From a virus, in the IMG/VR virus record IMGVR_UViG_3300045988_183511: DNA of 64,000 bases, one strand, 5' to 3'. Shown in pieces: positions 2,376 through 26,658 of this stretch. The notes under the pieces were generated by a model. It was given only the letters and a program-made list of their open reading frames with translations, ran no database searches and was not told the origin of the DNA. How positions within the stretch are numbered: position 1 is the stretch's first letter; every line of letters begins with the position of its first letter. A program made the position numbers and the translations under genes.

Positions 2376-5096
2376 TCAGCCGAAACTAAGCTGCTCCGAG
2401 TCAGTTGAAAAGAAAGCCACCTTTTTCTTAGCCCGTTCTTTTGCGCTTTTGCTCATAGGCTTCTTTGCGCCGTCCAGATGATGCTTGCTCTTGTACGAAT
2501 AGCCTTTCCAGGCAGCTTTGTATGAGAGATATCCGTATCCATTGGCGTTGTCCAGGACCCTATCGGTAGCCGTCTCGACCACAACATAGCGCGGCTGATT
2601 GGGCTTTGAAAGTTCAGGACTCTTCACGACACGGTAACTCTTCTTTTCATCTGCGCCGTACTTGGAGAACGGTAATGTGGATTCCTTTTGGGGTTTGGCT
2701 TTTGCCTTGGTATTTTCGGTATTTCCCTCGACGGAATCCACCAGTTCAGAGTCAAAGAACGCCTCATCGAGCGGCACATTGGAATTGTTCTGCTTATTTG
2801 CTTCTTCGATTTTCTGATACATGGCATCTTCGACACGGCGCATCTTCCAGACCTTGATGAGGACCTTTTCCGGGAACATGATGGCCAGTCCCTTTTCGGC
2901 CAGCATCTTTCGGACAGCAGGCGTAGCGAAAGACTTGTATTTTGCATACGGTCCTTCTTTGTGCTGCTCGATTTCATGGCTTACCTGAGTCATGTATTCC
3001 TCAAACGCCTTGTTCTGGTCGAGCCAGAACTCGACTTCGGAATAAGGAGAATCATGGTCCACGGTTTTTTGAAGTTCGCAACTCTTCGCATAAGCAAGAC
3101 AAGCGTCTTTCACATCGGCAAAACCAAGCCCAAAATTATCGTTCAGAGTGTTTCGGCGTGCTCCATCCATCACGAAATAACGGCTTCCTTGCTTGATGAT
3201 GGCGATACCATCTCCGGAAGTGATGGCGGTGGGTTCTTCCGCATATCCGTCGTCAGTCCAGCGGTCGATAATCGATGCCGTATCCTGTACAAAGCCTTTT
3301 CGGCAAGTGTAATAATCCGCGCCGTTGTAAGCTCGTTTCGTGATGCACTTGAGGATTGCGTCAATCAGAGCGTCCTTATCCTTGATTTTTACGCTGTACA
3401 TCAGGTTACTTTTCACGTTCCAGACAACGCCATATGGAAGACCCAGCGCAATCATAGAACACGCACACTGCAGAAAATGCTTGTGTGCCAGACTGCTGAT
3501 GAACTTGATGCAGTAGACGGTGTTGTTCTTTACGACATCCGCAAGGCCCGAAGTGTAAATCACTTTATGGTCATTAGTATGGATGTCGATATCTCCGCGT
3601 GCCTGAACATACTCATCGGGAGTGAACACGGTGCCAAGCCGCATACTGAGCGACATTTTGGCTTTTGCGCTCACAAAAGGAGGCTTGACCTGTTTTACAT
3701 ACCGGCACTGATTCGTTTCGAGTGCTGTGAGCAGTAGAACCTTATCCTCGACCGTTGCGCCTTTCTTGATTTTCAAATACTGCATGTCCTTGTGTAGGTC
3801 CATGTAATAAGCGAGTGCGTCATCGATATCATAGGAATTAAAGAATCCTGCCTGCATGTAGATGCTGATGCAGGGAGACAAATCAATCATTGCATCTGCC
3901 GTCTGGATATCAATGGTCGTGGTATCATTACGTTCAATCGGTGTGACTTCCAGCAGCTTATAGCAAGCATCCACATCTTCGATGAATTTGTGGTCGAACA
4001 TCTCGGAGAACGAAAACGGATGCCGGAACACGCAATTCATTCCAGTCGGAGTCATCAGGGATTTATCGCTCAACGGATGGTCATAGTTCACGAAGATAAT
4101 CCGCTGCTTTCCTCGACTTGCTGCGACACAAAACAGATTCCGAAGAATCTCATATCGTGACATCGGCTTGCTTGTGCGGGACGACCAGTATTCTTCAGTG
4201 AAATCGAACACGACACAGATAGGTCGCTCCATACCTTTGCTGCCGTCAAATGTTGTGAAGATACCAACATCTGAGGAAGGTGCTACCGCCTTATCCCCGT
4301 CATTGTCCGCGATACTTGCATAGACGTGATGCTTGTCATAGAGGTTTCCGGGGCGATTTTCCAGGTCATTGAGCACCTTTGTCATAGCTCCGATTCGAGC
4401 GCCCAGGCACAAAACATCTTTCGGGTTTTGTTTATTCAGAAACTCCGTCACCTCATCGACTGACATCTGTTCCACGATGCAGGAACCATTTACGCCGTTG
4501 ATGGTCTTGCCCCAGATATTGCCGAGTCTTTCAGCCAGGTTATGGGAAATACGGAAGCATTTCGTGAAAACCACCTGTTCATGGCGGCCGAGAAAATCCT
4601 GCATGAACTCCCAGACATCCAGCGCTGTATCATCGTAGATTTTCTGCTTCATATCGCCCACTGCGACGATTTGAAGGCCCGGATTCTGAGAACGGATATA
4701 TTTGAGCAGTTCTGCAATCTCGTCATTGATATCCTGATACTCGTCAATGATAAGAGTATCAATTGGCGGAATCGGAATTTTCTTTTCCAATACCATAGCG
4801 AGCTGTTCACCCTGCCCGCAATTTCGGATTCCCTTTTTGTTCAGCAGCAGGCTTGCAAATCCATGATAGTTCTGGACCAAGACATTATGATTTTTGATTT
4901 TGTCTTTGGCGTCAAGTTTGAGTAATCGGTTATAGGTCAAGTACAGGATACGCCGTTCTGGAGGGTACGCATCACAGAGCACGTTGATGGTCGATGTCTT
5001 TCCGCTGCCAATGCAGGCGTCACACAATACGTTTTTTCCCGACAATGCCAAATGTACGAATTCCTGTTGTTCGCTTGACAAGTCGTTCAGTGTCAT
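2376..5096 (-). CDS. UvrD/PcrA-like superfamily 1 DNA helicase (about 906 aa)
   Basis: ORF track; Walker A CIGSGKTST, motif II IIDEYQD, VAVGDMKQKIY; start at MTLNDL (AAGGAGA RBS) rather than the track TTG start. Confidence 0.65.
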   Translation of the reverse strand: MTLNDLSSEQQEFVHLALSGKNVLCDACIGSGKTSTINVLCDAYPPERRILYLTYNRLLKLDAKDKIKNHNVLVQNYHGFASLLLNKKGIRNCGQGEQLAMVLEKKIPIPPIDTLIIDEYQDINDEIAELLKYIRSQNPGLQIVAVGDMKQKIYDDTALDVWEFMQDFLGRHEQVVFTKCFRISHNLAERLGNIWGKTINGVNGSCIVEQMSVDEVTEFLNKQNPKDVLCLGARIGAMTKVLNDLENRPGNLYDKHHVYASIADNDGDKAVAPSSDVGIFTTFDGSKGMERPICVVFDFTEEYWSSRTSKPMSRYEILRNLFCVAASRGKQRIIFVNYDHPLSDKSLMTPTGMNCVFRHPFSFSEMFDHKFIEDVDACYKLLEVTPIERNDTTTIDIQTADAMIDLSPCISIYMQAGFFNSYDIDDALAYYMDLHKDMQYLKIKKGATVEDKVLLLTALETNQCRYVKQVKPPFVSAKAKMSLSMRLGTVFTPDEYVQARGDIDIHTNDHKVIYTSGLADVVKNNTVYCIKFISSLAHKHFLQCACSMIALGLPYGVVWNVKSNLMYSVKIKDKDALIDAILKCITKRAYNGADYYTCRKGFVQDTASIIDRWTDDGYAEEPTAITSGDGIAIIKQGSRYFVMDGARRNTLNDNFGLGFADVKDACLAYAKSCELQKTVDHDSPYSEVEFWLDQNKAFEEYMTQVSHEIEQHKEGPYAKYKSFATPAVRKMLAEKGLAIMFPEKVLIKVWKMRRVEDAMYQKIEEANKQNNSNVPLDEAFFDSELVDSVEGNTENTKAKAKPQKESTLPFSKYGADEKKSYRVVKSPELSKPNQPRYVVVETATDRVLDNANGYGYLSYKAAWKGYSYKSKHHLDGAKKPMSKSAKERAKKKVAFFSTDSEQLSFG

Positions 5097-8509: not shown

Positions 8510-9010
8510 TTAGTCATGAGGATGTTCGTGGCAAGGTTCAGGCGGCATACCATGCGGGTCAGGCTCGGGGAAGTGGCCATGGTCCCCGATGATTTCCGAA
8601 GTACGGATACCGTTTGCTTTCCGGCAAGCCTCGATGGTCTTAGAAAGTACTTCCTTGACATCGCGCGGGTTCCTGATACGACGGATATCGATTTCAGGTG
8701 TCATGGCATCCGTGGAGCAGAGATGGATGCTGCCGACACGGCAAAGGCGCTCATAGAAGTTCTGCTTGAACGCGATTTCGTATATGAGGCTTACATGAAA
8801 ATGCTCAATCCCGCCTACTGGCATGTCTGCATTTTTATCTTTAATTACGAAGTCTAATGGAGTATTTGACCGTGTTGGTTCTACAATGTTATCTCCAATG
8901 ATTTCTTGAATAACATTTTTTGTGTATTCATACTTTGCCGCCGTTCTGGCAATTTTCAGGCACCGTTCTTCCGCGTCATATTGTGCTTGCGGACCATTGA
9001 CATCAATCAT
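8510..9010 (-). CDS. hypothetical protein (166 aa) co-oriented directly downstream of the RM specificity gene
   Basis: ORF track; 4-nt overlap with S subunit gene; His/Pro-rich C-terminus; no recognisable motif. Confidence 0.4.
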   Translation of the reverse strand: MIDVNGPQAQYDAEERCLKIARTAAKYEYTKNVIQEIIGDNIVEPTRSNTPLDFVIKDKNADMPVGGIEHFHVSLIYEIAFKQNFYERLCRVGSIHLCSTDAMTPEIDIRRIRNPRDVKEVLSKTIEACRKANGIRTSEIIGDHGHFPEPDPHGMPPEPCHEHPHD

Positions 9011-15728: not shown

Positions 15729-17924
15729 TTACCTCCTGGTTCTTGCCGCCTTCTGTTGTTCGACCCACGCTTCGGCTTCCTCTACTGTGGCATACACTGC
15801 CGTCTCACCGCGCCGGGCAATCTGCTTTTGGGCATTCTGAGCTGCCTGCTCACTCTTGTAAGTTTCATAGCCAATGTAGGACCCATCCCATCGGGCAAGG
15901 CAGCAATAATATTCGTGGCTCTTAGCGGGAGCTGTCGGGACAAAGGGAGGAGGTACTGCGGGTGTTGCCTGAGTCGGCTGTGCGGCAGGAATCGGTGTTC
16001 CAGTCTTTCTGGCAATTAGATTCTGCTTTTCTGCCATCCATGCATCAGCTTCCTTCGTACAATAGAAGTACTTTGCTTCGCAAGTATTGAACAGTGAATA
16101 ATACAGATTCAACATTTCTTTTTCACTGTTGCAGACCTTCTTGCGAGCCAAATTGTAGCTTGCATCGTAGTAGCAGCAGATGAAAGCATCCCCACGCGGT
16201 GCTTTCTTCGTCTCATCTTCCTTGTAGTCTGGATACAGCTTGGCGAGGTCTTCTGCCGTATTCTTTTCCGGGTCCAGCGTGGATGCGTCGAACCCATTCG
16301 GAAGTTTCCAGTCATGAGAACTGATGATGTCCAAAAAGCTGCTTGCATAGCGCAATGTCCAGCGCCCAACATGGACGAACCCAAAACTTTCAAGACACCG
16401 AATCTGTTTCGGGGTAGCCATTCCGCTGGCTCTGCGAGCAATGAGTCGTTTGAGAATTGCAGCGGCAAGGCCCTGAGATTTGATGGCATCCCCTTTTACG
16501 CCGTAGCACGAAATACTATCGATGATGTCATCGGAAGGCTCCTGCCTCTCACTCTCAAACATCGGCTGATAATCGTTGAGTTCCGGCGCTTCGATGCTGA
16601 AAATGTACTGCAGCGGGTCAACCAATCCTCTCGGCTTTTGACGCTGTGCCTTGAGCTTGCGCTGAATCGTATCCTGCTTTTCGAGTTCACACAGTGCTTT
16701 CCGCTTTTCCTCGTCCAGCTCAGTCTGTGCTTCCTCGATTGCCTCAATCAGCCCCAATTCGGGACTCCCGAAATTCTCCTGGCTATTCGAACCGGTGAGT
16801 GCCGCATCCGCCAACATATCGGTGGTCTTTTGTGCCACTTCCGGGTCTTCACAGAAAATATCAGCAGGATGGCAAAGACTATGTTTCTTTGTCAGCCACA
16901 GGAAATCCAGCACGAGAAGATTCTTTTTCCCTTCACATAGGCGTGTTCCGCGTCCCACAATCTGCGCATACAGGCTACGGCTCTTGGTAGGACGCAAGCA
17001 GATGATACAGTCAACGGTCGGGCAATCCCAGCCTTCCGTCAGGAGCATCGCGTTCGTCAGCGCCTTGTACTCGCCATTGTCAAACCCTTTCAGAACGTCC
17101 TTCCGGTCCGCAGACGCGCCGTTGACTTCTGCGGTCTTGAAGTTTCGCTTATTGAGGATATTACACAGTCTTTTGCTGATTCGTACCAGAGGCGTAAAGA
17201 TGACAGTCTTTCGGTTCTGGCATTCTCGCACAATGGCATCCGCAATCGTGTCCAGATACAGGTCAAGAACATTGCCGAGGTCCTGAGCACTGAAATCACC
17301 GGCATTGATATGAACCTTGCTGATGTCTACCTCGACCGGAATTGTCTTCGTGTTAATTTTGCAGAGATATCCTTCCCGAATTGCATCCGGGAGCTTATAT
17401 TCAAATGCAAGACTATCAAAGATATCAGATAGGGATTTCATGTCGCTTCGGTCGGGTGTTGCGGTCACGCCCAACACTTTGGCATCGATGAAATGCTCGA
17501 GAATTCCCTTGTAAGTTTTGGCTGCCGTGTGATGCGCTTCATCAATGATGATAGTCCCGAAATAATCACGCGGATACTTCATTAACCGATTCTGCTTAGA
17601 GAGAGTCTGAACACTGGCAACCACGACCATCTTATCGGAATCGAGCGCCGAGCTTTGCGCTTTCTCTAACGCGGTCTCTAGCCCCGTCACCATCTTGAGC
17701 TTGTCGCTTGCCTGCTGTAAAAGCTCTTCCCGGTGCGCAAGAATCAAAACGTGTTCGCCCTTTGCCACCTGGTCGTTCACGATGCTTGCAAACACAATAG
17801 TTTTGCCGGTTCCGGTCGGCATCACAACCAGCGTTTTCTTATTCCCGGCATCCCACTCTCTATGAATCGCCGCAGCAGCTTTCTGCTGATATGGCCGTGG
17901 GTCAATCTTCTTTGTTGTAATCAT
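15729..17924 (-). CDS. superfamily 2 DEAD/DEAH-box helicase with long C-terminal extension
   Basis: ORF track; Walker A MPTGTGKT, DEAH box IIIDEAHH, TATPDRSD, motif VI QIVGRGTRL. Confidence 0.65.
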   Translation of the reverse strand: MITTKKIDPRPYQQKAAAAIHREWDAGNKKTLVVMPTGTGKTIVFASIVNDQVAKGEHVLILAHREELLQQASDKLKMVTGLETALEKAQSSALDSDKMVVVASVQTLSKQNRLMKYPRDYFGTIIIDEAHHTAAKTYKGILEHFIDAKVLGVTATPDRSDMKSLSDIFDSLAFEYKLPDAIREGYLCKINTKTIPVEVDISKVHINAGDFSAQDLGNVLDLYLDTIADAIVRECQNRKTVIFTPLVRISKRLCNILNKRNFKTAEVNGASADRKDVLKGFDNGEYKALTNAMLLTEGWDCPTVDCIICLRPTKSRSLYAQIVGRGTRLCEGKKNLLVLDFLWLTKKHSLCHPADIFCEDPEVAQKTTDMLADAALTGSNSQENFGSPELGLIEAIEEAQTELDEEKRKALCELEKQDTIQRKLKAQRQKPRGLVDPLQYIFSIEAPELNDYQPMFESERQEPSDDIIDSISCYGVKGDAIKSQGLAAAILKRLIARRASGMATPKQIRCLESFGFVHVGRWTLRYASSFLDIISSHDWKLPNGFDASTLDPEKNTAEDLAKLYPDYKEDETKKAPRGDAFICCYYDASYNLARKKVCNSEKEMLNLYYSLFNTCEAKYFYCTKEADAWMAEKQNLIARKTGTPIPAAQPTQATPAVPPPFVPTAPAKSHEYYCCLARWDGSYIGYETYKSEQAAQNAQKQIARRGETAVYATVEEAEAWVEQQKAARTRR

Positions 17925-17979
17925 ATTTCACCCAAAAAACAAGCAGGCCCGAAATGAGCCTGCCTTACTTTTTCTCAAT

Positions 17980-18177
17980 TTAGTTCATTGCCCGCTGCAT
18001 CACAAATATAATGCCGGTTGCCAAAACCATAACGCCAATGTCTCTGACAACGGTTCCGACCCGTTTATCATTGGTAATGTCCTGATTCCATTCAAATCCC
18101 CAACCAATCATAGCGACACCAACCACAATCAAAATAACACCAACAATCGTTAAGCTTTCTTCTGATAAACCGTACAT
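17980..18177 (-). CDS. small membrane protein (about 65 aa)
   Basis: ORF track 17980..18276 with start reset to MYGLSEE (GGAAAGGAAA RBS); two predicted TM helices. Confidence 0.35.
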   Translation of the reverse strand: MYGLSEESLTIVGVILIVVGVAMIGWGFEWNQDITNDKRVGTVVRDIGVMVLATGIIFVMQRAMN

Positions 18178-18265
18178 AGTGCATTTCCTTTCCGCAAACA
18201 AAAAAGTCCCGCACAAACAACTCATGCGGGACAACGATAAGATATATTTTTGGTTTATATTTTTC

Positions 18266-18293
18266 ATTGTACGCAATTCGCACAGATTGACAA
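18266..18293 (-). promoter_or_regulatory. minus-strand promoter, best motif copy (TTGTCA-atc-TGTGCGAAT-tgcg-TACAAT)
   Basis: read on minus strand about 90 nt upstream of small membrane gene. Confidence 0.55.
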
Positions 18294-18412
18294 TAGAAAA
18301 TTACAAAAAAATTCCCGCATGAGCGTCGCTGCTCACACGGGAAAAAATTTCTTAATATTGGGTATTTATTATTTTTGGTGGGATTTCTTACGAAAATTGG
18401 TGGTCTACTAAT

Positions 18413-19952
18413 TTACGTAAAAACAATCCCTTCATTTTTTGCAACAAATCTGCATTGTCCAGCGGCTATTTTGTTCACGTTGGTGTCTTTATACCTTGTT
18501 GCTTTCCCGTCCTTGGAAGCCACTATGCTTTGCATTACATGAGCTTGTTCGCCAACAAAAAATACACTTCCTGGATGATTACGGTTCAAATTTCTATATG
18601 CAGGATGATGCTCTTTCACCTTGAGCTTGCAAACATCACCTGGATGGCTTTGACGAAACTCTTCCAAGCTGTCGGTAGTCTGTTTAATAGCCTTGTGGCG
18701 ATTCGTTGCCACTGCTTTGCCATTGAGCGTGTACACGCGACTCATGTTCTCTTTATGTAGCGCTCTTCTATCATGGCGGCGGAACTGTTTCAGCTCATAC
18801 GGCACATGATTGTTGATATTGCTATCACAAACGTTGCTTGGCAAGACGGAGCAAGCAATACAGTAAGCATCGAGCCAATGGTCTTTACTTACACTGTGCG
18901 ACTCACGATAGTCATGGGTGCTCTTGCCTGTTGTCACAAAAAAGTGCTTTGGAAATAGCACACTCAATTTATTCGTCAGTGCCGGAATGATTTGATTCAA
19001 TACACTCAAAGCGCCGTACTTTTTGTTAAGTCCAACTTTTTCTTCGGCAAGTTTCTTTTGCCAGGCAGCATCTTTATGAACAAGGTTATGATGCTCCGAG
19101 CATAGACCAACGATATTGGCAATGGTGTTGCTGCCATTCTCGGATTGCAGCACTACATGGTGGTAATGGTCGATGGGTTTATCACAGAACAGGCAATGGT
19201 GTTCCTGCATTTCAGAAACAGCATTTTCAAGACTCCCTTTTTGGTAGAGTGGACCTTGTTGGTACTGCCATTTCTGAATGTCAGGATTATCAAGCCGCAT
19301 AAACGCAAATTTGTTGACTTCAAGTACAACATCGCTGATGGGAAGAAACTTTTGAATCTTCTTAACCAAGTTGATGTGTGTTTGGAGCAGCTGATTTGCA
19401 GTAGGTGTAAGCCAGCCTTCCGGTCTTGTGCGGTTGGTGAACTTTGTCTCTTTGTTTTTGATGCCGATGCAAAGTACATCTTTTTCACAACCCGGTAGGC
19501 GGCGTTTAATAACACCGATATCTTTTGCGCGTTTGCTGACGCTGCCATTTTGAGCAGTAGTTTGCTTAACGCACTTTTTAGAAATAGTTCCATTTGCCTT
19601 AGCTCTCCGTTGACGGCGGCAGCGTCTGCCATTGGTGCGTCTTGCGCGGCGGGCTTTTTTTACGGTCTTGCATCAACTTTGGAATCTCTTTATTGCGAGT
19701 TTCCAGATGTGCCGTAAAGACTGCCGTTCCATTTGCTTTAACAACGGCAACGCCAATATTGGTTCTACCGGGGTCAATACCCAAATAGAGCAGCTGTACC
19801 GCATCATCTGTTTCATATAGCAGCTGGATGGTAAACGGTTTTGCTCTTACGACTCGTGCTTTCTGCTCTTTAAGCAGATGGCGCACATGCCCGCCGCGAG
19901 TCGTAGGCATTAAAGGTTTACCGTCTTTGTTAAGCACATAAACAGTGGGCAT
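18413..19952 (-). pseudogene. iscB: iscB (OMEGA RNA-guided nuclease) interrupted by a +1 frameshift in a poly-A tract near 19651-19661
   Basis: Track ORFs 19599..20084 (KPLMP motif, Ruv[17 protein letters not shown]) and 18413..19369 (HNH CLFCDKPIDHYHHVV...GLCSEHHNLVH) are in different frames; my translation of the 19369-19672 gap in the downstream frame gives the bridge helix [19 protein letters not shown]; the frames meet at an A-run (AAAAAAAGCCC). Confidence 0.65.
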
Positions 19953-20154
19953 ATACGCCACCTCCTTTACGATAAGTCTCTCCTGCCGAAACAGGAGGTT
20001 GTGTTTCCCTTGGCTAGATGACGCCTTCGCATGGTTGCAGGCTGGGAAAACCGTACAAGTGCAGCTCGTCATCTTGATGTACAAAAGTACATCTGCCTGT
20101 GATATTTACAAAGTCAAGTGGTTTTGTTGGAACCACCAAATTTCGTAAATACCC
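19953..20154 (-). ncRNA. candidate omega RNA (IscB guide RNA scaffold)
   Basis: about 200 nt non-coding stretch immediately 5' of iscB start with several stem-loops on minus strand (GTGGTT-ccaacaa-AACCAC; GTAC-tttt-GTAC; TCCTG-tttcgg-CAGGA); position matches where IscB omega RNAs are encoded. Confidence 0.4.
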
Positions 20155-20763
20155 TTAATATTCAGTGCAGAGAACCGTCAAAAGGCTGGAGAAGTAGTAC
20201 ATTGCGATGGTCGTGATTTTCACAGCATCGCTTCCCTGCCCGTTTGCAAGGCGCGTAAAGGTGCCGCCATTCTTGAGTCGGGTCATGGTCAGGTACATGA
20301 GCATATAGGTGTTCACATAGACGTCTGTATATCGCTGACCGTCGTCCTCGTAGCGCTGCGGGATACATTCCTGACTCAACATTTCAATGAGCTGATACCA
20401 GGATTTCAGATACAGAGGGCTCTTCGGTTCATTCAGAGCATTCTGAGCCTGCTTCTGGTATTCTTTCAGAGTTTCATCAGTCAGGGGCATAAACTCGACG
20501 TTTGCAAATTTGTCACGGTTGTAGTAGAGCCACAGCGTGGCATTGGACAGGTCCATGCAAATACCGGCAAGCTTCTCTGCTTTTTCGTCCTCCAGTTGAG
20601 TCACCGGAACGCTCGGGTCATCGATTTCGGCATCTTCGGAAGTCATGTCCACAATCCTGTAGCTGTTCTCTTCTGCCCGAATTTCAGAACTGACGAAGCG
20701 CTTGAAATCTTCAACGAGCTTCCGATAAGCTTCGAGCTGAGCATTTTCTTTCTGTTCACTCAT
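20155..20763 (-). CDS. hypothetical protein (about 202 aa)
   Basis: ORF track 20155..20865, start reset to MSEQKEN (GGGAG RBS). Confidence 0.4.
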   Translation of the reverse strand: MSEQKENAQLEAYRKLVEDFKRFVSSEIRAEENSYRIVDMTSEDAEIDDPSVPVTQLEDEKAEKLAGICMDLSNATLWLYYNRDKFANVEFMPLTDETLKEYQKQAQNALNEPKSPLYLKSWYQLIEMLSQECIPQRYEDDGQRYTDVYVNTYMLMYLTMTRLKNGGTFTRLANGQGSDAVKITTIAMYYFSSLLTVLCTEY

Positions 20764-20957
20764 AATGTGTATCTCCCTTTTGGATTTCTTATTATATGGA
20801 TATTGCACTTTTTTGCAAGGGCTTTTAACCCAAGCACCTTTTGCGCCGTTTGTCAATGGCCACAAAATATCAAAGTACTGGTAAAATTAAGGTGGGAAGA
20901 CGTTCTGGAACCATGAAACACAGGGCCCTGCCTCTTGCTTATGGCTGCTGACTTTTT

Positions 20958-21665
20958 TCAGCCTGCGTTCTGGCTGTTCTTCTTGACATCGGCTGCAACC
21001 TTCAAGCGGCGTATGTACTCTTCCAGTTCCTCCAGTGTATAGGTTTCTTCCGTCTCAATCGGCTCTTTGGCATCTTTGGGCAGATAGCTTTTCGTACAGA
21101 CAAACTCAGGGCTCGTTACAGGGCAGTCCAGGACAGTTTCATCGTACAACTCTTTCTCGATGTTGTGGTAGAGAAAGAACGGGATATGCCGCCCGCAATC
21201 GTCATCCGATTCTGTCCAATCCGGGAGTTCCTGGATTTCGAGGGCATATGTTTCATAAAATATCGTGTTTGCCCGAGCATTGCCAAGAAGAGTGTTGAAC
21301 AGCTTAAAGTTTTCCCTCACTTCACGGCGAAAGAACTTCGGGAGCGAGAACTCCTCGTATTCCAGTTTCGTATCAGAGCGTAGGTAGTATCGGTACTGCG
21401 TCTCGACCGGTATAAACTTTGTTGCAGCATTCAGTTCTTTCAGAGCGTTGAGTCGTTCACTCGTCTTTCTGACATTATGTCTTGCATAGCCCAGATACGC
21501 TGAAACCAGAATCATCAGAAGAAGAGCTGCAAGGATAATGACAATGAGCCATTCCTCGCCTTCCATATGCGGCAGGTGTTTCAGAATACTATCCTGGATA
21601 GCATAAGGAAGGTCATCGAACCATTCATAGAACCCAATCGGGTCCTGATAAGTATGGGGAGCCAT
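20958..21665 (-). CDS. hypothetical membrane-anchored protein
   Basis: ORF track; one TM helix (LIVIILAALLLMILV). Confidence 0.4.
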   Translation of the reverse strand: MAPHTYQDPIGFYEWFDDLPYAIQDSILKHLPHMEGEEWLIVIILAALLLMILVSAYLGYARHNVRKTSERLNALKELNAATKFIPVETQYRYYLRSDTKLEYEEFSLPKFFRREVRENFKLFNTLLGNARANTIFYETYALEIQELPDWTESDDDCGRHIPFFLYHNIEKELYDETVLDCPVTSPEFVCTKSYLPKDAKEPIETEETYTLEELEEYIRRLKVAADVKKNSQNAG

Positions 21666-21683
21666 GATTCACCCTCACCGCCA

Positions 21684-22571
21684 TCAGTAAATAAACTTGC
21701 ATTCCCGGCGTTCCCGGCCATTGCCGCACCAGTAATGCCGCCAGCGGGGGGTTTTGCCTTCCCCATTCTTTTTGTATTCTTTGGCCGCATTCTCACCAAC
21801 GGTATACGGTTTAATGTTGATTCGCTGTGCCTTTCCCTGAAACACGAATACCGGGCGGTCACGCTTTTTGGAAGTTTCCAAGCGGACATCAGGGTTCTTG
21901 CTGGCAAGATAGTTGGCGCACAGGATTGCCAGCCGGACATAAGGCGTTCCGTCGTCAAAGACCGAAGGCACTTCTTCCATTACGGCCGGAACACTGATAC
22001 CGTTCACTTGCCGCTGTCCTGCTGCCTTTTCCAGATATTCTTTCGTACTCCGGGTTGCTTCCGTCAAACTCTGATTTTCCTTGGCCCAGGCAGGCAGAGT
22101 CAGGAACGTGAAATCATCGTGGCTACCCTTAGTGGGGCCGACAAGAACGATACCGAAAGCTGTGGTTTTCTCTTTTTCGTCGAATTCCACATGCACGAAC
22201 ATACCGTTGTAGTCGTAGCTGTCATACACCGGGATAAAGAAATCACGAACCGGGAGTCGCTGCAGGATATCCTGATGAATTGCCACGTCATCCGTATCCA
22301 TCAGCATTTTCTGAAACTCGTAGTCAAAATCATAGACCGTCTTCGTCTGATTCCAGCAGCCAATGGTAAAGCAGGGAAAAATCTGCGCAGCCAAAACACG
22401 CTCAAAACCCGGCGTGTTCATTCTCTGCGCCGCTGTCATGCAGCACAGCATCGCGGACTTGTTGTATTCTTCCAGCGTTTTTCCACACGGGTCACTGAAT
22501 CCAAAATGGTTTCGGGTTTGTTTGGTAACGGCATTCGCCGTCAATGCGATTCTCAGCTGTTCATTGGTCAT
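21684..22571 (-). CDS. hypothetical protein (295 aa)
   Basis: ORF track. Confidence 0.4.
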   Translation of the reverse strand: MTNEQLRIALTANAVTKQTRNHFGFSDPCGKTLEEYNKSAMLCCMTAAQRMNTPGFERVLAAQIFPCFTIGCWNQTKTVYDFDYEFQKMLMDTDDVAIHQDILQRLPVRDFFIPVYDSYDYNGMFVHVEFDEKEKTTAFGIVLVGPTKGSHDDFTFLTLPAWAKENQSLTEATRSTKEYLEKAAGQRQVNGISVPAVMEEVPSVFDDGTPYVRLAILCANYLASKNPDVRLETSKKRDRPVFVFQGKAQRINIKPYTVGENAAKEYKKNGEGKTPRWRHYWCGNGRERRECKFIY

Positions 22572-23164
22572 TTGCTATCCTCCAAAAGTTTATTTTTTGT
22601 CATATGCAAACAGCGCTGGACCATCCCAATGGTGAATTTGCGAGTCGTCAGTACTGTCATGAGCTTTCCTTCATTGCCCTTGATGGTTCGTTCCAAAATG
22701 TTCCAGGATTCGCTTTCGGGCTTGACATTGGTATATAAGTCCAGCGGAACATACAACCACGCGATTTCACTGTCCTGCATCACGGCATAGGATTGCAGGA
22801 TTTTATCAATTGCCTCCACGCCGACCTTCCAGCTGGTGATTATGGTCCGGCTGATATCGTATACAATCAGGTGCGGTGCTTCATTTGCTTCCGTATCAAC
22901 TTCAATGACATGAGCAATATACGGTTTTCCGTCCACCAGCTTATACCGATAAATGATGGACGGGATTTTCTCTCGAATCAATCTGTCATGTTCAAGCGCC
23001 AAGTCCGCGTACTCGCCCGTTGCATCAATGATGATGACTCGTCCCTGACAGGTCCTCAGTGTCGCTCTAATTTGCTTGCGGCACCAGGCAGAGCAGCTCT
23101 CTTTGTACTCCGTCGAGACAAGAAAGAAATTCCTGCCCGGTGTGATAATGGGTTCATAGCTCAT
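22568..23164 (-). CDS. hypothetical protein (198 aa)
   Basis: ORF track; 4-nt overlap with upstream gene. Confidence 0.4.
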   Translation of the reverse strand: MSYEPIITPGRNFFLVSTEYKESCSAWCRKQIRATLRTCQGRVIIIDATGEYADLALEHDRLIREKIPSIIYRYKLVDGKPYIAHVIEVDTEANEAPHLIVYDISRTIITSWKVGVEAIDKILQSYAVMQDSEIAWLYVPLDLYTNVKPESESWNILERTIKGNEGKLMTVLTTRKFTIGMVQRCLHMTKNKLLEDSK

Positions 23165-23202
23165 TGTTTATCCTCTGTAGCTTTTGTAATTCATTCACTT
23201 TT

Positions 23203-23230
23203 AATTGTCTGCAATTCGCACAGTTTCGCA
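23203..23230 (-). promoter_or_regulatory. minus-strand promoter, motif copy (TTGCGA-aac-TGTGCGAAT-tgca-GACAAT)
   Basis: read on minus strand. Confidence 0.45.
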
Positions 23231-23264
23231 ACATGATATTGTCTGTGAATACCAGTTATCGGAG

Positions 23265-23903
23265 TCATAGTCCTTTGACAAAATTCGGGTCGTAGTGGGA
23301 CAGGACTTCCTCGTTCAAGCTGTATTCGCAGTTGATAGTCGTTGCGTCATCCACATACATGCCTCGGTTTGCGTAGTATATTCCATCAATATAAATGGCG
23401 AACATGACGGACGGCATCAGTGCCTTTTCATTCACTGCGTAAATCAGGTATTCATCCAGATTATCCTTGACCACCGCGCTCTTATTGATTTGGGCGATTT
23501 GCTGTCCGCCAAGAAATACAGGGCAGCATACTCCTTCTTTTCCAAAACCAATTTTGTAGCTCTGGTATTCCTCGCCATACAGCTGCATGGCGATAGAATT
23601 GTATCCTTGGAGAAATCCGGTTTTTGTATGGATGACGGAAATCTCGCCTACCGTGCAGTTGTTCTCACGGATAGCAAAAGGGTATCTCAGAATATCTTTC
23701 GTGTTGATGCCGCGCATGTACGCCCTTGCGTCAGCAGCTGGCATGTATTGCAGCAGAAACTTGGAATCATTCAGCCGGATGCCATAACCCTGCCGTAGCA
23801 ATTTCGGGATATAGTGTGCCTGCCCGATAACGGCCTTGCCTTTCACGATATCGAAGGTGAACTCATATCCTTTCGATTTGGTTTGCTTCACAATCCATTG
23901 CAA
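23265..23903 (-). CDS. hypothetical protein (212 aa)
   Basis: ORF track. Confidence 0.4.
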   Translation of the reverse strand: MQWIVKQTKSKGYEFTFDIVKGKAVIGQAHYIPKLLRQGYGIRLNDSKFLLQYMPAADARAYMRGINTKDILRYPFAIRENNCTVGEISVIHTKTGFLQGYNSIAMQLYGEEYQSYKIGFGKEGVCCPVFLGGQQIAQINKSAVVKDNLDEYLIYAVNEKALMPSVMFAIYIDGIYYANRGMYVDDATTINCEYSLNEEVLSHYDPNFVKGL

Positions 23904-24144
23904 GACTCATCGCCTCCTTTTGCCTTCTCACTCGCTGGATAACCTTGTAAATACCAGGAACCGAGAGCTGATATTTTTCGGATAGTTTCTGCACCGGTAC
24001 GCCACTCTCGTATTCTCGAAAGATATTCTCATTGCGCGGTCTTTGTCTAATTTTGATGCGCTCATTTCTACGGTTTTCAGTCAGGCCCGCATCGTTGGCA
24101 ACCATGCTGCAATATCCTTCTGCCACGTTAAATTTCGCAATCAT
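23863..24144 (-). CDS. small HTH protein (sigma-70 region-4-like)
   Basis: ORF track; ESGVPVQKLSEKYQLSVPGIYKVIQRV helix-turn-helix. Confidence 0.45.
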   Translation of the reverse strand: MIAKFNVAEGYCSMVANDAGLTENRRNERIKIRQRPRNENIFREYESGVPVQKLSEKYQLSVPGIYKVIQRVRRQKEAMSLAMDCEANQIERI

Positions 24145-24189
24145 TTCCTTGAGAGGGACACTGTTCTTGTATGCCGCAAGAATTTCGGC

Positions 24190-24327
24190 CTATCTAGCAT
24201 CCTCTACCTGCGCCAACTGAATTCTGGCCTCCTGTTTCGCGTCGTCTAACGCTCGATAGCATGTACGGACGCTCAACCTGTATTTTGCGGCAAGCTCCTC
24301 AATGGAATAGCCGTTGCCGTAGTCTTT
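24190..24327 (-). CDS. very small HTH protein paralogous to 23863..24144; same frame, separated by a single TAG
   Basis: ORF track 24190..24441; GYSIEELAAKYRLSVRTCYRAL HTH; start reset to internal ATG because the promoter motif overlaps the track start. Confidence 0.3.
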   Translation of the reverse strand, partial: KDYGNGYSIEELAAKYRLSVRTCYRALDDAKQEARIQLAQVEDAR

Positions 24328-24403
24328 CATGATATTGCAATTTCGCTCAATCAACTTTTTGCTTGCAAATTTTGAGATGGTACTCAGCTCCTTTGCTTTA
24401 CGC

Positions 24404-24431
24404 TTTATTTCTGATTGTCTGCAATTCGCAC
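24404..24431 (-). promoter_or_regulatory. minus-strand promoter, motif copy (TTGCCC-att-TGTGCGAAT-tgca-GACAAT)
   Basis: read on minus strand. Confidence 0.45.
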
Positions 24432-24492
24432 AAATGGGCAACTATTTTTGCGAAATAAGAAGGCAGGCTCCGAAAAGAACCTGCCATGCATA

Positions 24493-26658
24493 TTAGAGGT
24501 TAAAGATGCCCAGCCAGCGCCGAAACTTGATGCCGAACAATTCCTGTGCCTGCTCGTAGTTCATGATAAGCTGGTTGCCGCCAGAAATCTCTGCTTCGAG
24601 GGAGTTCGGCAGCTCATCTGCAATGTATTTCAGTTCGTACCACGGTCCATCCGGCGGATAGGAGTAAATGAGCCTGTTCTGCTTCTTATCAACCCGGAAC
24701 TTGCTCGGGTCAGCCTGCCATGCCAGTTCGATTTTCTCAATTGCAGCACGACCAATGCTCTCATCACCCATATAGTCGTTATAGTACAGGATACGCACAT
24801 AGTCCGGCAAATCGATTCCGCATGCCTCGAAGATATCTGCAATGACACTAGACGAAGCGTGGAAGATATCCGGGAAGTATTCCTTGCCATTCGCATTTTC
24901 ACGCATTTCCGTCGTCATCTCATCGATGCAAACAAGCATTCGGCGGACATATTCGCCATAGAACGCGGTTGTCAGCTCCGACATACTCTCATTCACACGC
25001 TTCGAGTTTTTGGCACCGCGCTCGTTGTCGATTTTAGCACCAATTCGACAGATGATAGCGCGTTTCGAGAGGTCTTTTGTCAGCGAGGTAATTTTATTCG
25101 ATGTGATAGATACAGCAGGATAGTTCACGAGCCTGTCCGAGATACCCCATTCATCGTTCTTGATTACCCGTTCTGAATGGTTCTGAAACTGGGTCTTGGC
25201 GAGGTCGTCGATGTTCAGCGGCAGTCCCTCACAAACTCGTTTGAGGCCGTCGATTCTTGTGGCTGTGAAATCCTCCGTTGTGTTCATCTTAACGGTCTCA
25301 CCGCTCATGAGTTTGATAAGAAATTTTATAAAGGTCGTCTTGCCGCCGTTTGAGTCACCGTAAATTACGCCGTACATCGGGAACAGCTTCGTATCGTAGT
25401 TGTTCCTTGACGCAAAATACCGAAGGTACGCCATGAACGGGGTAGCCAGATACCAGGTCATGTACTTGAAGTAGTCCTTCTTGGCCTGTTCGACATCGCC
25501 GTAAAAGTAGTCCATGCCTGAGAAGAACTTCTGGATGCTTTTGATGTTCTTTGCCACCTCGCTGAGATTCGGATTGAGGTCGATATTCTCGTCGTTGAAG
25601 GTCATGGTCCCGGCATCATAGTCGATATGTAATTTCGGGAGCTGCTTAACTGCCTCAGCTGCCACACGCCGAACCTCGGTATATCGTTTCCCGAAAACGC
25701 GCATCGGTTCCGCTGCCACTACAATACGATTCGCCTGTACCGGCATCTTAGGCATGATTGGCTTGACGAGTTCCTGCATTTTCTTGACATCGGCAACTAT
25801 CTCGTATTCGACCTCATCCTCAGGCTGTGCCTGTTCCAGAAAGACAAGCTTCTGCTTTTCAATAGACTGAAAGACGGGCACTTCTTTGATGTTCTCTTTC
25901 AGATAATCTTCCTGGTTCATGGTGTTCACGACTGCCTTATAGGAGACATTGTCGGAGCAGGTCTCCTTGAAGGTCTCGAACAGAACCTTGTAATGCGAAA
26001 ATGCCGCCTCGTCATCGAAGCAGACGATATTCTCTCGCTGAATGCCGCAAAACGCCGATGCCGACATATTCGCACTGCCGGTGATGACTCGGACACGCTT
26101 ATGGTCAGCGCTCTCCAAGATAAAGATTTTCTCGTGCGATTTCGTGTCTCGCGATACATACAGCTGCAAGGACCCGTCATCGAGGCGGTTCGCAAGGTTC
26201 CCTGCCGACTTAGACTTAGCGAGCCGCTGCACGCTGTCGATTTGCACCGACATGATGGCAGCAATGCCGTTGGCGATGATTTTCTCGCATCCGAACACGA
26301 CTTCCGCATACGAGAACTTGTTGATGACCTTATTCACGAACTCGATACCGGACGAAAAAGTGATAGCATAGAGTCTGTCGAACCCGTCAAACAACTCTTC
26401 CCAATTCGTTTCTACCGTATCAGCATATACCGCCTTCACAACACTCAACGCCTGCGTGGAGATGCTCGCCTTTGCCTTCGTGGTCTTGTTCGCCACGAGT
26501 TTGAAGGGCTTATCCGTCTGCCCTTCACTGTCCTCCATGTCCTCGCCGGGGTCCAAGAGTTCTTCCGGGCCTTCTACGGTATATTCGGGGCTTTTCGATG
26601 CCATCATGTCCATGAGCGACATCTGATTTTCCAAGTCGTTTGTTTTCCTTCTTGCCAT
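24493..26658 (-). CDS. PLD-like (HKD-type) nuclease domain fused to P-loop NTPase (primase/VirE-associated-like)
   Basis: ORF track; SHEKIFILESADHKRVRVITGSANMS resembles HxK..GSxN; Walker A GDSNGGKTTF, Walker B-like LNIDDL. Confidence 0.5.
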   Translation of the reverse strand: MARRKTNDLENQMSLMDMMASKSPEYTVEGPEELLDPGEDMEDSEGQTDKPFKLVANKTTKAKASISTQALSVVKAVYADTVETNWEELFDGFDRLYAITFSSGIEFVNKVINKFSYAEVVFGCEKIIANGIAAIMSVQIDSVQRLAKSKSAGNLANRLDDGSLQLYVSRDTKSHEKIFILESADHKRVRVITGSANMSASAFCGIQRENIVCFDDEAAFSHYKVLFETFKETCSDNVSYKAVVNTMNQEDYLKENIKEVPVFQSIEKQKLVFLEQAQPEDEVEYEIVADVKKMQELVKPIMPKMPVQANRIVVAAEPMRVFGKRYTEVRRVAAEAVKQLPKLHIDYDAGTMTFNDENIDLNPNLSEVAKNIKSIQKFFSGMDYFYGDVEQAKKDYFKYMTWYLATPFMAYLRYFASRNNYDTKLFPMYGVIYGDSNGGKTTFIKFLIKLMSGETVKMNTTEDFTATRIDGLKRVCEGLPLNIDDLAKTQFQNHSERVIKNDEWGISDRLVNYPAVSITSNKITSLTKDLSKRAIICRIGAKIDNERGAKNSKRVNESMSELTTAFYGEYVRRMLVCIDEMTTEMRENANGKEYFPDIFHASSSVIADIFEACGIDLPDYVRILYYNDYMGDESIGRAAIEKIELAWQADPSKFRVDKKQNRLIYSYPPDGPWYELKYIADELPNSLEAEISGGNQLIMNYEQAQELFGIKFRRWLGIFNL

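Follow-up and report, generated by a model that had tools for sequence, protein, structure and literature searches.

A recently frameshifted iscB gene of the OgeuIscB clade on a probable non-autonomous transposon with terminal inverted repeats and 8-bp target-site duplications

Introduction

The viral record IMGVR_UViG_3300045988_183511 from IMG/VR (a stretch of 64,000 nucleotides, called here the window) carries on its minus strand a gene for the RNA-guided nuclease IscB, interrupted by a single-base frameshift and preceded by a non-coding region resembling an omega RNA. An initial annotation, made from the letters alone, described the locus as an insertion sequence (IS) element. A frameshifted iscB taken by itself would be an ordinary pseudogene of a well-known family, and the architecture of the element around it matters more: ISC/IscB elements are described as having neither inverted repeats nor target-site duplications (Kapitonov 2016, PMC4810608; 2026 review, PMC13565253). 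Which kind of mobile element carries this gene, what RNA does it specify, and how was the reading frame lost? The analysis presented below leads us to conclude that the element is very probably one copy of a multi-copy, non-autonomous transposon residing in mobile elements of human and animal gut Firmicutes, whose cargo is an omega RNA and an iscB of the OgeuIscB clade, freshly broken in this copy.

Results

Ends of the element, target-site duplication and empty sites

Comparison with intact iscB homologues, suggested in the initial annotation, defined the element ends at 18360 and 20154. Similarity between copies at the DNA level stops at ~20154-20166 on one side and at ~18348-18360 on the other, and inverted repeats stand at the borders of every copy (loci other than the window are given L numbers). 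The resulting features are:

18360..20154, minus strand: IscB element of 1795 bp, with inverted repeats of ~24 bp and an 8-bp target-site duplication
20131..20154, minus strand: left terminal inverted repeat, GGGTATTTACGAAATTTGGTGGTT, which doubles as the 5′ arm of the first omega RNA hairpin
18360..18383, minus strand: right terminal inverted repeat, ending in TCCCACCAAAAATAATAAATACCC
~18388-18404, minus strand: second, direct copy of the repeat motif, ACCACCAATTTTCGTAA
20162-20155, minus strand: left copy of the target-site duplication AATATTAA, which includes the TAA stop of an upstream gene of 202 amino acids (aa)
18352..18359, minus strand: right copy of the target-site duplication AATATTAA (two copies in the filled site; also found de novo)

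At up to three mismatches, the left repeat gave a sole match in the window, with none expected by chance. The left and right repeats of the window's element pair at 18 of 22 positions, and at 17-21 of 22 across elements. A third, inverted copy of the repeat forms the 3′ arm of the guide-adaptor hairpin of the omega RNA, and the right end holds two direct copies. Three subfamilies were distinguished by their termini (TTTACGAAA, TTTGCAAAA and TTGAAGAAT); the left and right ends match and co-vary.

The flanks showed direct repeats of 8 bp, all different in sequence: 25 perfect and 3 with one mismatch among 61 unique flank pairs, while a separate flank scan gave 27 unique perfect 8-bp duplication sites. 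When 3.1 Mb of fetched loci were scanned de novo for inverted repeats combined with an 8-bp duplication, essentially these elements alone were recovered. Contigs such as ORUI01000009 and IMGVR_UViG_3300045988_183639 contain three copies apiece. Sister contigs, found via the two host proteins that flank the insertion, provided the empty sites. The element is missing in 19 of the 20 contigs bearing the same two flanking host genes, and AATATTAA is present there in a single copy, the empty-site sequence reading ...CACTGAATATTAA followed directly by GAAATTTTTTCCCGTG. Judged from these filled and empty sites, the element is a true insertion with a target-site duplication, lying between the stop codon of the 202-aa gene and its terminator.

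Transposon class

Because of the ~24-bp inverted repeats and the variable 8-bp duplications with matching empty sites, the architecture is not that of IS200/IS605 (ISC) elements and fits a non-autonomous transposon of the terminal inverted repeat/target-site duplication (TIR/TSD; DDE-type) kind. The ends co-vary, the duplication is constant in length and variable in sequence, and the empty sites have one copy, as expected of TIR/TSD transposons; the absence of TIRs and of duplications and the fixed short target motif that characterize ISC elements are not seen here. Moreover, Y1 transposition makes no target duplication (PMC4810608). The initial annotation was thus right to regard the locus as a mobile element, but not of the IS200/IS605 (ISC) type that the term "IS element" usually implies for IscB.

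It is still the textbook view that IscB genes belong to ISC elements (PMC4810608; PMC13565253), and the left end does hold a hairpin. One could therefore imagine a canonical IS200/IS605-type element moved by a Y1 TnpA, in which subterminal hairpins would account for the repeats, and a conserved motif for targeting or cleavage would account for the flanking repeat. We regard this as extremely improbable, since the flanking 8-mers differ per insertion (25-27 distinct perfect pairs), the empty sites contain one copy, the ends are mutual inverted copies that co-vary, and the left-flank counts show no conserved 4-5-nt target before the left end. No Y1 (HUH) TnpA was found in the element, the examined window regions or the related loci, an absence in cis that is normal for ISC elements too; in this respect, the initial annotation, which saw no tnpA, holds.

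The preferred TIR/TSD assignment leaves many likenesses to the ISC elements (Kapitonov 2016; Geobacillus ISGst5, Meers 2023). Both are short and non-autonomous and carry only IscB and omega RNA, and in both (for the window, by prediction) the guide comes from the boundary flanking DNA, the element shares the orientation of the upstream gene, a TAM-like motif (target-adjacent motif, TAM) lies by the insertion site and the arrangement is compatible with homing. What separates them is that ISC elements use fixed 4-5-nt motifs and Y1 TnpA and have no TIRs or duplications, whereas the window's family has the repeats and variable duplications described above. Within the literature searched, DDE-linked OMEGA elements with inverted repeats are reported for TnpB and Fanzor only (PMC10691335), and no paper was found that links IscB to TIR/TSD elements, so that this architecture is not described there for IscB. 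Like the TnpB modules on DDE transposons (IS630-linked and others; Altae-Tran 2023, PMC10691335) and the Fanzors in TIR/TSD transposons, the present element places an OMEGA nuclease on a symmetrical-ended, duplication-making transposon. Unlike them, with their 3′ omega RNA and usually identifiable transposase, it carries IscB, its omega RNA lies 5′ and is fused with the left repeat, and there is no linked transposase.

Omega RNA

The region between the stop codon of the upstream gene and the ATG of iscB spans 202 nt, and the initial annotation had placed here about 200 nt of hairpin-rich non-coding sequence:

19953..20154, minus strand: omega RNA scaffold, 202 nt, assigned by homology, fold, covariation and covariance model
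~20153-20101, minus strand: guide-adaptor hairpin, the first of the omega RNA

The predicted fold has a free energy of -69.5 kcal/mol (z = -4.6), and none of 200 shuffled sequences was as good, which bears out that description. The RNA comprises the guide-adaptor hairpin, the nexus with central stems, an internal hairpin whose loop, UUUUCCCAG, is conserved, and a terminal hairpin CCUCCUG/CAGGAGG, and its 3′ end overlaps the ribosome-binding site (RBS) of iscB. The 3′ half of the omega RNA of OgeuIscB, as published (Kato et al. 2022, supplement), aligns directly to the window RNA, the alignable stretches being AGCCAAGGGAAACACAACCUCCUG...CAGGAGAGACUUAUCGUAAAGGAGG in the comparison with AGCCAGGGGAACAAUACCUCUCUG...CAGAGAGUUUACAAAGGAGG.

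To evaluate covariation, 13 non-redundant sequences of the window's subfamily were aligned, and variants were analysed separately because a single consensus structure over all subfamilies failed in the mid-region, where MAFFT misaligns short and long variants. In the 13-sequence alignment, 97.4% of the cells pair, as compared with 32-50% when the partners were slid. Compensatory double changes occur in 11 pairs vs. 5.4±1.3 in shuffles, and none of 500 shuffles reached this number. A covariance model built from this alignment (R1) gave a single match in the window, at 19953-20154, with 217 bits. It also matched directly 5′ of iscB in L098, a member of a 69%-identical subfamily (86.8 bits), and in L405, which encodes an Ogeu-like IscB of 58% identity (41.6 bits, E 1.5e-9), and gave no match in the empty-site locus. 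Taken together, these comparisons identify the 202 nt as an omega RNA of the OgeuIscB type.

A scan of 17500-21500 against Rfam returned neither HEARO (RF02033) nor any other family at E<=10 apart from chance-level matches; a CyaR-like Rfam match was rejected as merely the terminator at 18201-18270. The initial annotation had named the covariance-model search as a check, and the lack of an Rfam match would be misleading as a refutation, given the homology of this stretch with the omega RNA of OgeuIscB, the covariation and the match of the purpose-built model. HEARO RNA and the window RNA belong to the same functional class of structured RNAs upstream of IscB-type HNH open reading frames (ORFs), but the Ogeu-type scaffold lies outside the curated model.

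Probably, the invariant UUUUCCCAG loop pairs with the invariant GGGAAA of the single-stranded stretch AGCCAAGGGAAAC to form a pseudoknot, which we call putative because neither of the complementary sides varies. We also observed that the alleles of the window, L227, L105 and L002, which share one insertion site, diverge by ~4% in patches of the ORF, while their first 205 nt (left end and omega RNA) are identical. This suggests gene conversion between paralogous copies and/or a strong constraint on the RNA.

The iscB gene

The gene starts with the ATG at 19952-19950, just 3′ of the RBS AAGGAGG, and is laid out as follows:

19952..18413, minus strand: iscB, frame-disrupted, split at the A7 run 19655-19661
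19662..19952, minus strand: 5′ part in the start frame, codons 1-97, with the PLMP domain (PLMP at 19916-19905) and RuvC-I (Asp60 at 19775-19773)
19655..19661, minus strand: A7 homopolymer, the frameshift lesion, at Lys98-Lys99, where the Arg-rich bridge helix starts (A6 in intact relatives)
18413..19654, minus strand: 3′ part in the +1 frame relative to the start, with bridge helix, REC linker, RuvC-II, HNH, RuvC-III and WED/TI; Glu211 at 19321-19319, His264 at 19162-19160, His358 and Asp361 at 18880-18869, stop codon at 18415-18413

The initial annotation had located the N-terminal fragment inside the ORF 19599..20084, and it does lie there, though the real start is the ATG given above and not the beginning of that ORF. 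HNH and RuvC-II/III are inside the ORF 18413..19369, and translation confirmed that the downstream frame is open further 5′, beyond this ORF and through the bridge-helix segment up to the A-run. This frame contains the motifs ISDVVLEVNKF, the HNH sequence CLFCDKPIDHYHHVV...GLCSEHHNLVH and DHWLDAYCIA. The two frames meet where they had been expected to meet; the estimate of about seven A's at 19651-19661 and ~510 aa is refined to exactly seven A's at 19655-19661 and 512 aa. Without repair, the start frame runs into a stop at 19601-19599 to give a 117-aa product that is a stub of PLMP and RuvC-I, and the C-terminal ORF is left unlinked. Removal of one A from the A7 produces an uninterrupted ORF of 512 aa, as anticipated for a single-base frameshift at a poly-A run.

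The repaired protein matches Pfam RRXRR (2.7e-49) and NCBIfam NF040563 guided_IscB ("RNA-guided endonuclease IscB"; 226.4 bits at a cutoff of 175), and phmmer aligns its residues 1-509 with the OgeuIscB chains 7XHT, 7UTN and 8CSZ (E ~1e-171). Its domain order is PLMP, RuvC-I, Arg-rich bridge helix, RuvC-II, HNH, RuvC-III and WED/TI. D60, E211, H264, H358 and D361 (RuvC D/E/H/D and the HNH H) are all kept at the positions aligned with OgeuIscB, and the search for additional inactivating lesions in RuvC and HNH revealed none; the 3′ part contains no additional stop or frameshift. As written, the locus does not form the single ORF expected of an IscB, since A7 shifts the frame, and we classify it by sequence as an iscB pseudogene, that is, a disrupted allele of the OgeuIscB clade and not a functional IscB.

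The resemblance to OgeuIscB, which comes from a human gut metagenome, is close: the two proteins are collinear over their full length and about two-thirds identical, with the same domain order and catalytic residues; the omega RNA lies directly upstream, overlaps the RBS and has the same modules and an alignable 3′ half, and the flank motif is like the NWRRNA TAM. The differences are the frameshift of the window copy, the scaffold length (202 nt vs. 206 nt in OgeuIscB), somewhat rearranged middle stems and a 19-residue insertion (the KKCVKQTTAQNGSVSKRAKDIGV region) in the REC linker after the bridge helix. This insertion, at ~19500-19570 (repaired residues ~124-146), is absent from OgeuIscB and common to the 512-aa subfamily. 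A protein search revealed more than 100 clusters of intact 512-aa homologues with 76-97% identity; genome contigs gave distant relatives only, the best being from Owariibacterium (55%).

Origin of the frameshift

The initial annotation left undecided whether the frameshift is a sequencing artefact, real decay or slippage-regulated. We compared the A-run in ~150 related loci from IMG/VR and metagenomes. A7 is present in the window and in L001 alone; 58 loci have A6 and the rest A5 or shorter, and nearly all ORFs are exactly 512 codons long. Over 3 kb that include the A7, the window is matched with 100% identity by L001, a human gut scaffold of 244 kb; L001 is also the source of the protein cluster P0087, which is identical to the window's 318-aa C-terminal ORF fragment. 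In the syntenic relative L002, the run is A6 and the gene is unbroken; A6 is also found in L227, whose element occupies the insertion site of the window's. The nearest intact allele, L103, is separated from the window element, over 1747 nt, by a single substitution besides the additional A. Precisely this truncated product of 117 aa is indexed for six contigs from three sources (JGI/IMG, Logan and ENA); ERZ28577608 (SAMEA3136696) and the JGI and Logan records behind P0121 are examples of carriers of the allele. The data point, as part of the very probable overall explanation, to a real, recent, lineage-specific insertion that turned A6 into A7, i.e., to decay. The lesion is very recent, since the rest of the gene, the catalytic residues and the omega RNA are all intact.

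Two other accounts of the A-run have to be weighed against decay. If the seventh A were a homopolymer error of sequencing or assembly, the gene would be intact, and the nature of the lesion (a single base within a homopolymer, in an otherwise pristine gene whose A6 allele is only one other base away) agrees with this. The finding of the 117-aa product on six contigs from three sources makes an artefact of a single assembly unlikely, even if the contigs possibly come from the same samples; the A7 sequence recurs in the independent record L001, and a run of seven bases is short for a systematic Illumina error. We therefore give an error only a small chance. Somewhat less probable still is a regulatory role, in which programmed +1 frameshifting, transcriptional slippage or A6/A7 phase variation would tune the IscB dosage. 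A-runs are classic slippage sites in IS elements, this tract lies at a tolerant Lys-Lys position and is A6 throughout one subfamily, and low-level slippage of RNA polymerase on A7 could yield some full-length protein. However, the run is not conserved: the ~150 relatives are single-frame, many with AAAAAG, AAAAGA or AAGGAA at this place, and these comparative data rule out a conserved programmed frameshift. Rescue would require a +1 shift or an mRNA that loses one A or gains two, whereas the common -1 heptamer mechanism leads to the wrong frame, for which reason -1 ribosomal frameshifting on the A-run was rejected. We saw neither a stimulatory stop codon nor a stimulatory Shine-Dalgarno arrangement, and 6-7 bases are short for efficient slippage or phase variation. 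Recent decay of the gene thus remains our preferred explanation.

Guide, TAM-like motif and possible homing

In the OgeuIscB architecture, the guide stands directly 5′ of nt 1 of the omega RNA scaffold (PMC9640706). The left repeat is the 5′ arm of the first hairpin and the scaffold starts at nt 1 of the element, and therefore the guide should be the 16 nt of flanking host DNA:

20155..20170, minus strand: predicted omega RNA guide CTGCACTGAATATTAA, 16 nt of host DNA directly 5′ of the element, by OgeuIscB architecture
18346..18351, minus strand: TAM-like position, GAAATT, directly 3′ of the right duplication copy; in the empty site it follows the 16 nt that match the guide

The last 8 nt of the predicted guide (20162-20155) are the left duplication copy AATATTAA. 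By analogy, the flanking 16 nt would serve as the guide. The six bases that follow the duplication in 27 unique insertions read N-[A18/C7]-A(26/27)-[never T]-G(17)-A(15), or approximately AAAGGA, and the subfamily with TTGAAG ends prefers NCAAAA. This motif resembles the OgeuIscB TAM, NWRRNA (PMC12660989), and may function as one. The empty allele thus presents the guide match followed by the TAM-like motif, while the filled allele has GGGTAT at the TAM position. For IscB and TnpB of IS605, a role in homing and retention has been shown (10.1101/2023.03.14.532601), and by analogy this would be the empty/filled arrangement that such a role requires. An origin of the duplication in a staggered cut made by IscB itself was considered and rejected: the guide is created by the insertion and so cannot have directed it, and the duplication abuts the TAM-like motif and is not 3 nt away.

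For intact copies, we propose that read-through from the upstream host gene would produce an RNA of guide plus scaffold, which IscB would bind and use to cut element-free alleles carrying the guide match and the TAM-like motif; recombination with a filled allele would then restore or spread the element. The filled site would be immune because GGGTAT takes the place of the TAM. Jumps to new sites would need a transposase of the 8-bp-duplication type supplied in trans. The window copy cannot make IscB, but its omega RNA would still be usable by an intact IscB in the same cell, in line with the use of standalone omega RNAs in trans (PMC10691335).

Insertion site and neighbourhood

The element has separated the host gene from its terminator:

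20155..20763, minus strand: host gene, 202 aa, co-oriented with iscB (gene call and synteny)
20818-20791, minus strand: promoter-like site 5′ of the 202-aa gene
18312..18343, minus strand: intrinsic terminator of the 202-aa gene, a 13-bp stem followed by a T-run
21684-22571: AcrVA2-like protein
24493-26658: NgoFVII/PLD-type nuclease, 721 aa
15729-17924: DEAD/SNF2 helicase, 731 aa, missing in L002

In empty sites, the terminator follows the stop codon directly; the insertion moved it 1.8 kb downstream, where it would now end the iscB transcript. Roughly 4000 assemblies carry the 202-aa gene. The left end contains no promoter-like site, and the 202-aa gene is the probable source of the read-through transcription that would give the omega RNA its guide. 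A promoter upstream of a co-oriented host gene and none in the left end agree with the reported orientation bias, IscB elements being co-oriented with upstream genes (10.1101/2023.03.14.532601).

The initial annotation had placed the locus inside a conjugative element, and the window indeed encodes a coupling protein of a type IV secretion system (T4SS) and a VirB4/TraG-like ATPase at 54956-62961, as well as methylases and helicases; genes for AcrVA2-like, Mor, NADAR and NgoFVII/PLD-type products adjoin the element. This neighbourhood fits an accessory region of a gut-Firmicute conjugative element. The accessory genes at 15729-17924 and 20958-26658, among them those for the Mor-family regulator and the NADAR protein, look like an anti-defence/defence island of such an element. 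A different setting was observed in L406-L415, where an intact, 83%-identical IscB element is always found at one and the same position of a genome resembling that of a phage (Thy1, PhoH, SSB, primase), the samples being from the gut of pigs and humans; therefore, the family colonises phages besides conjugative elements.

Search for a transposase and related elements

No tnpA or other transposase was detected inside or adjoining the element, and the ten largest ORFs of the window gave Pfam matches to T4SS, methylase, helicase and similar functions, with no transposase. Blastn of the element and of its left-end hairpin against PLSDB plasmids and INPHARED phages returned nothing meaningful. Scans of IMG/VR with the exact right end and with the degenerate repeat recovered IscB elements, 910/978-bp, 495-bp and ~80-bp elements and solo ends, with no transposase, and a 14-mer scan gave random matches only. 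IS families with 8-bp duplications and ends starting with GG include ISL3, IS6, IS1595 and ISKra4/ISMich2, which provide leads.

Several elements with the same kinds of ends were seen in passing. An element of ~910 bp (L053 5855-6764; also L183, L187, L190 and L207) has the same inverted-repeat ends and right-end sequence and its own 8-bp duplication, AATAATTT. It carries a 253-aa ORF in place of iscB and the omega RNA, and a 978-bp variant (253/254-aa ORF) occurs in L197, L198 and L206. The ORF has no Pfam match and the element is found at two sites only; on these grounds, its product was rejected as the transposase and is probably cargo. L191 11526-12020 is a 495-bp internal-deletion derivative that retains both ends, 83 iscB codons and an omega RNA that is intact (R1, 122 bits), inserted at the site occupied by the full element in L194. 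The 83-aa product (P0123) is present on 143 contigs, and therefore copies with the omega RNA only are common; they could act in trans with an intact IscB.

Mini-elements of ~80 bp, consisting of the left and right ends only, and solo left-end hairpins of ~50-54 nt were observed without clear duplications (L208 12436-12519; L174 160-236; L285 ~3037, minus strand; L243, L255, L264 and L276) and may be remnants similar to MITEs (miniature transposable elements with inverted repeats) or products of excision or deletion. The right-end motif CCACCAAAAATAATAAATACCC also stands alone in intergenic positions just 5′ of Shine-Dalgarno sequences, behind unrelated genes (L215 ~8600-8635; L199; L192 ~3620-3653), and no left end was seen within 3.5-6 kb. 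Such motifs may be solo ends, or else larger, so far unrecognised elements may have their right ends here.

The Ogeu-like IscB of L405 (493 aa) likewise has inverted-repeat ends (1290-1500 / 2983-3040), TGGGGCTGTCCGATAATTCGTGTGGGA vs. the reverse complement of ...TCCCACATGAAATGTCGAATACCCCA; a duplication was not apparent in the one copy available. The finding is a hint of an inverted-repeat architecture throughout the OgeuIscB clade.

Discussion

In this work, we obtained evidence for an IscB-bearing element with transposon ends of the TIR/TSD kind. Several observations weigh against this interpretation or parts of it. About half of the unique flank pairs have no duplication, and several share one flank with another copy (L094 with L076 and L071); these patterns suggest that copies have recombined or been joined chimerically during assembly. 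A transposase with matching ends was sought in the window, in related loci totalling 3.1 Mb and in the collections of plasmids and phages, and none was detected. Of NWRRNA, the window's GAAATT agrees with the first four positions only, and the AAAGGA enrichment overlaps a Shine-Dalgarno-like sequence, so that the survival of insertions just upstream of genes could be partly responsible for it. We infer guide use, TAM function and homing from the work on OgeuIscB and the Geobacillus IscB. Finally, the six contigs bearing A7 may be different samples or re-assemblies of one sample.

A broader proposal, to which we give about an even chance, is that the whole OgeuIscB clade travels on a MITE-like transposon with TIRs and 8-bp duplications, moved in trans by a transposase that is presumably of the DDE type. 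The guide-adaptor hairpin would have arisen by fusion with the left repeat or by its exaptation. With the insertion sites lying beside the TAM of the nuclease, the coupling of TAM and transposase target known from IS605 would have re-evolved in a system that makes duplications.

Within the literature searched, we found no description for IscB of the inverted repeats, the 8-bp duplication, a transposon end serving at the same time as an RNA hairpin and the TAM-like motif beside the duplication. The current rationale for OMEGA systems, in which cutting of the scarless donor joint restores the transposon, rests on the "peel-and-paste" mechanism of IS200/IS605, and according to the 2026 review, DDE-type transposons should gain little from OMEGA modules. 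Here, a large, active-looking family of the OgeuIscB clade, relevant for editing, displays inverted repeats and 8-bp duplications. This clade holds the IscB most used for genome editing. If our interpretation is true, more kinds of transposons would be known to make use of RNA-guided nucleases, and the family would supply a natural data set of guide/TAM pairs for the OgeuIscB clade. It would also raise the question of which transposase moves these elements and how its choice of target is linked to the TAM.

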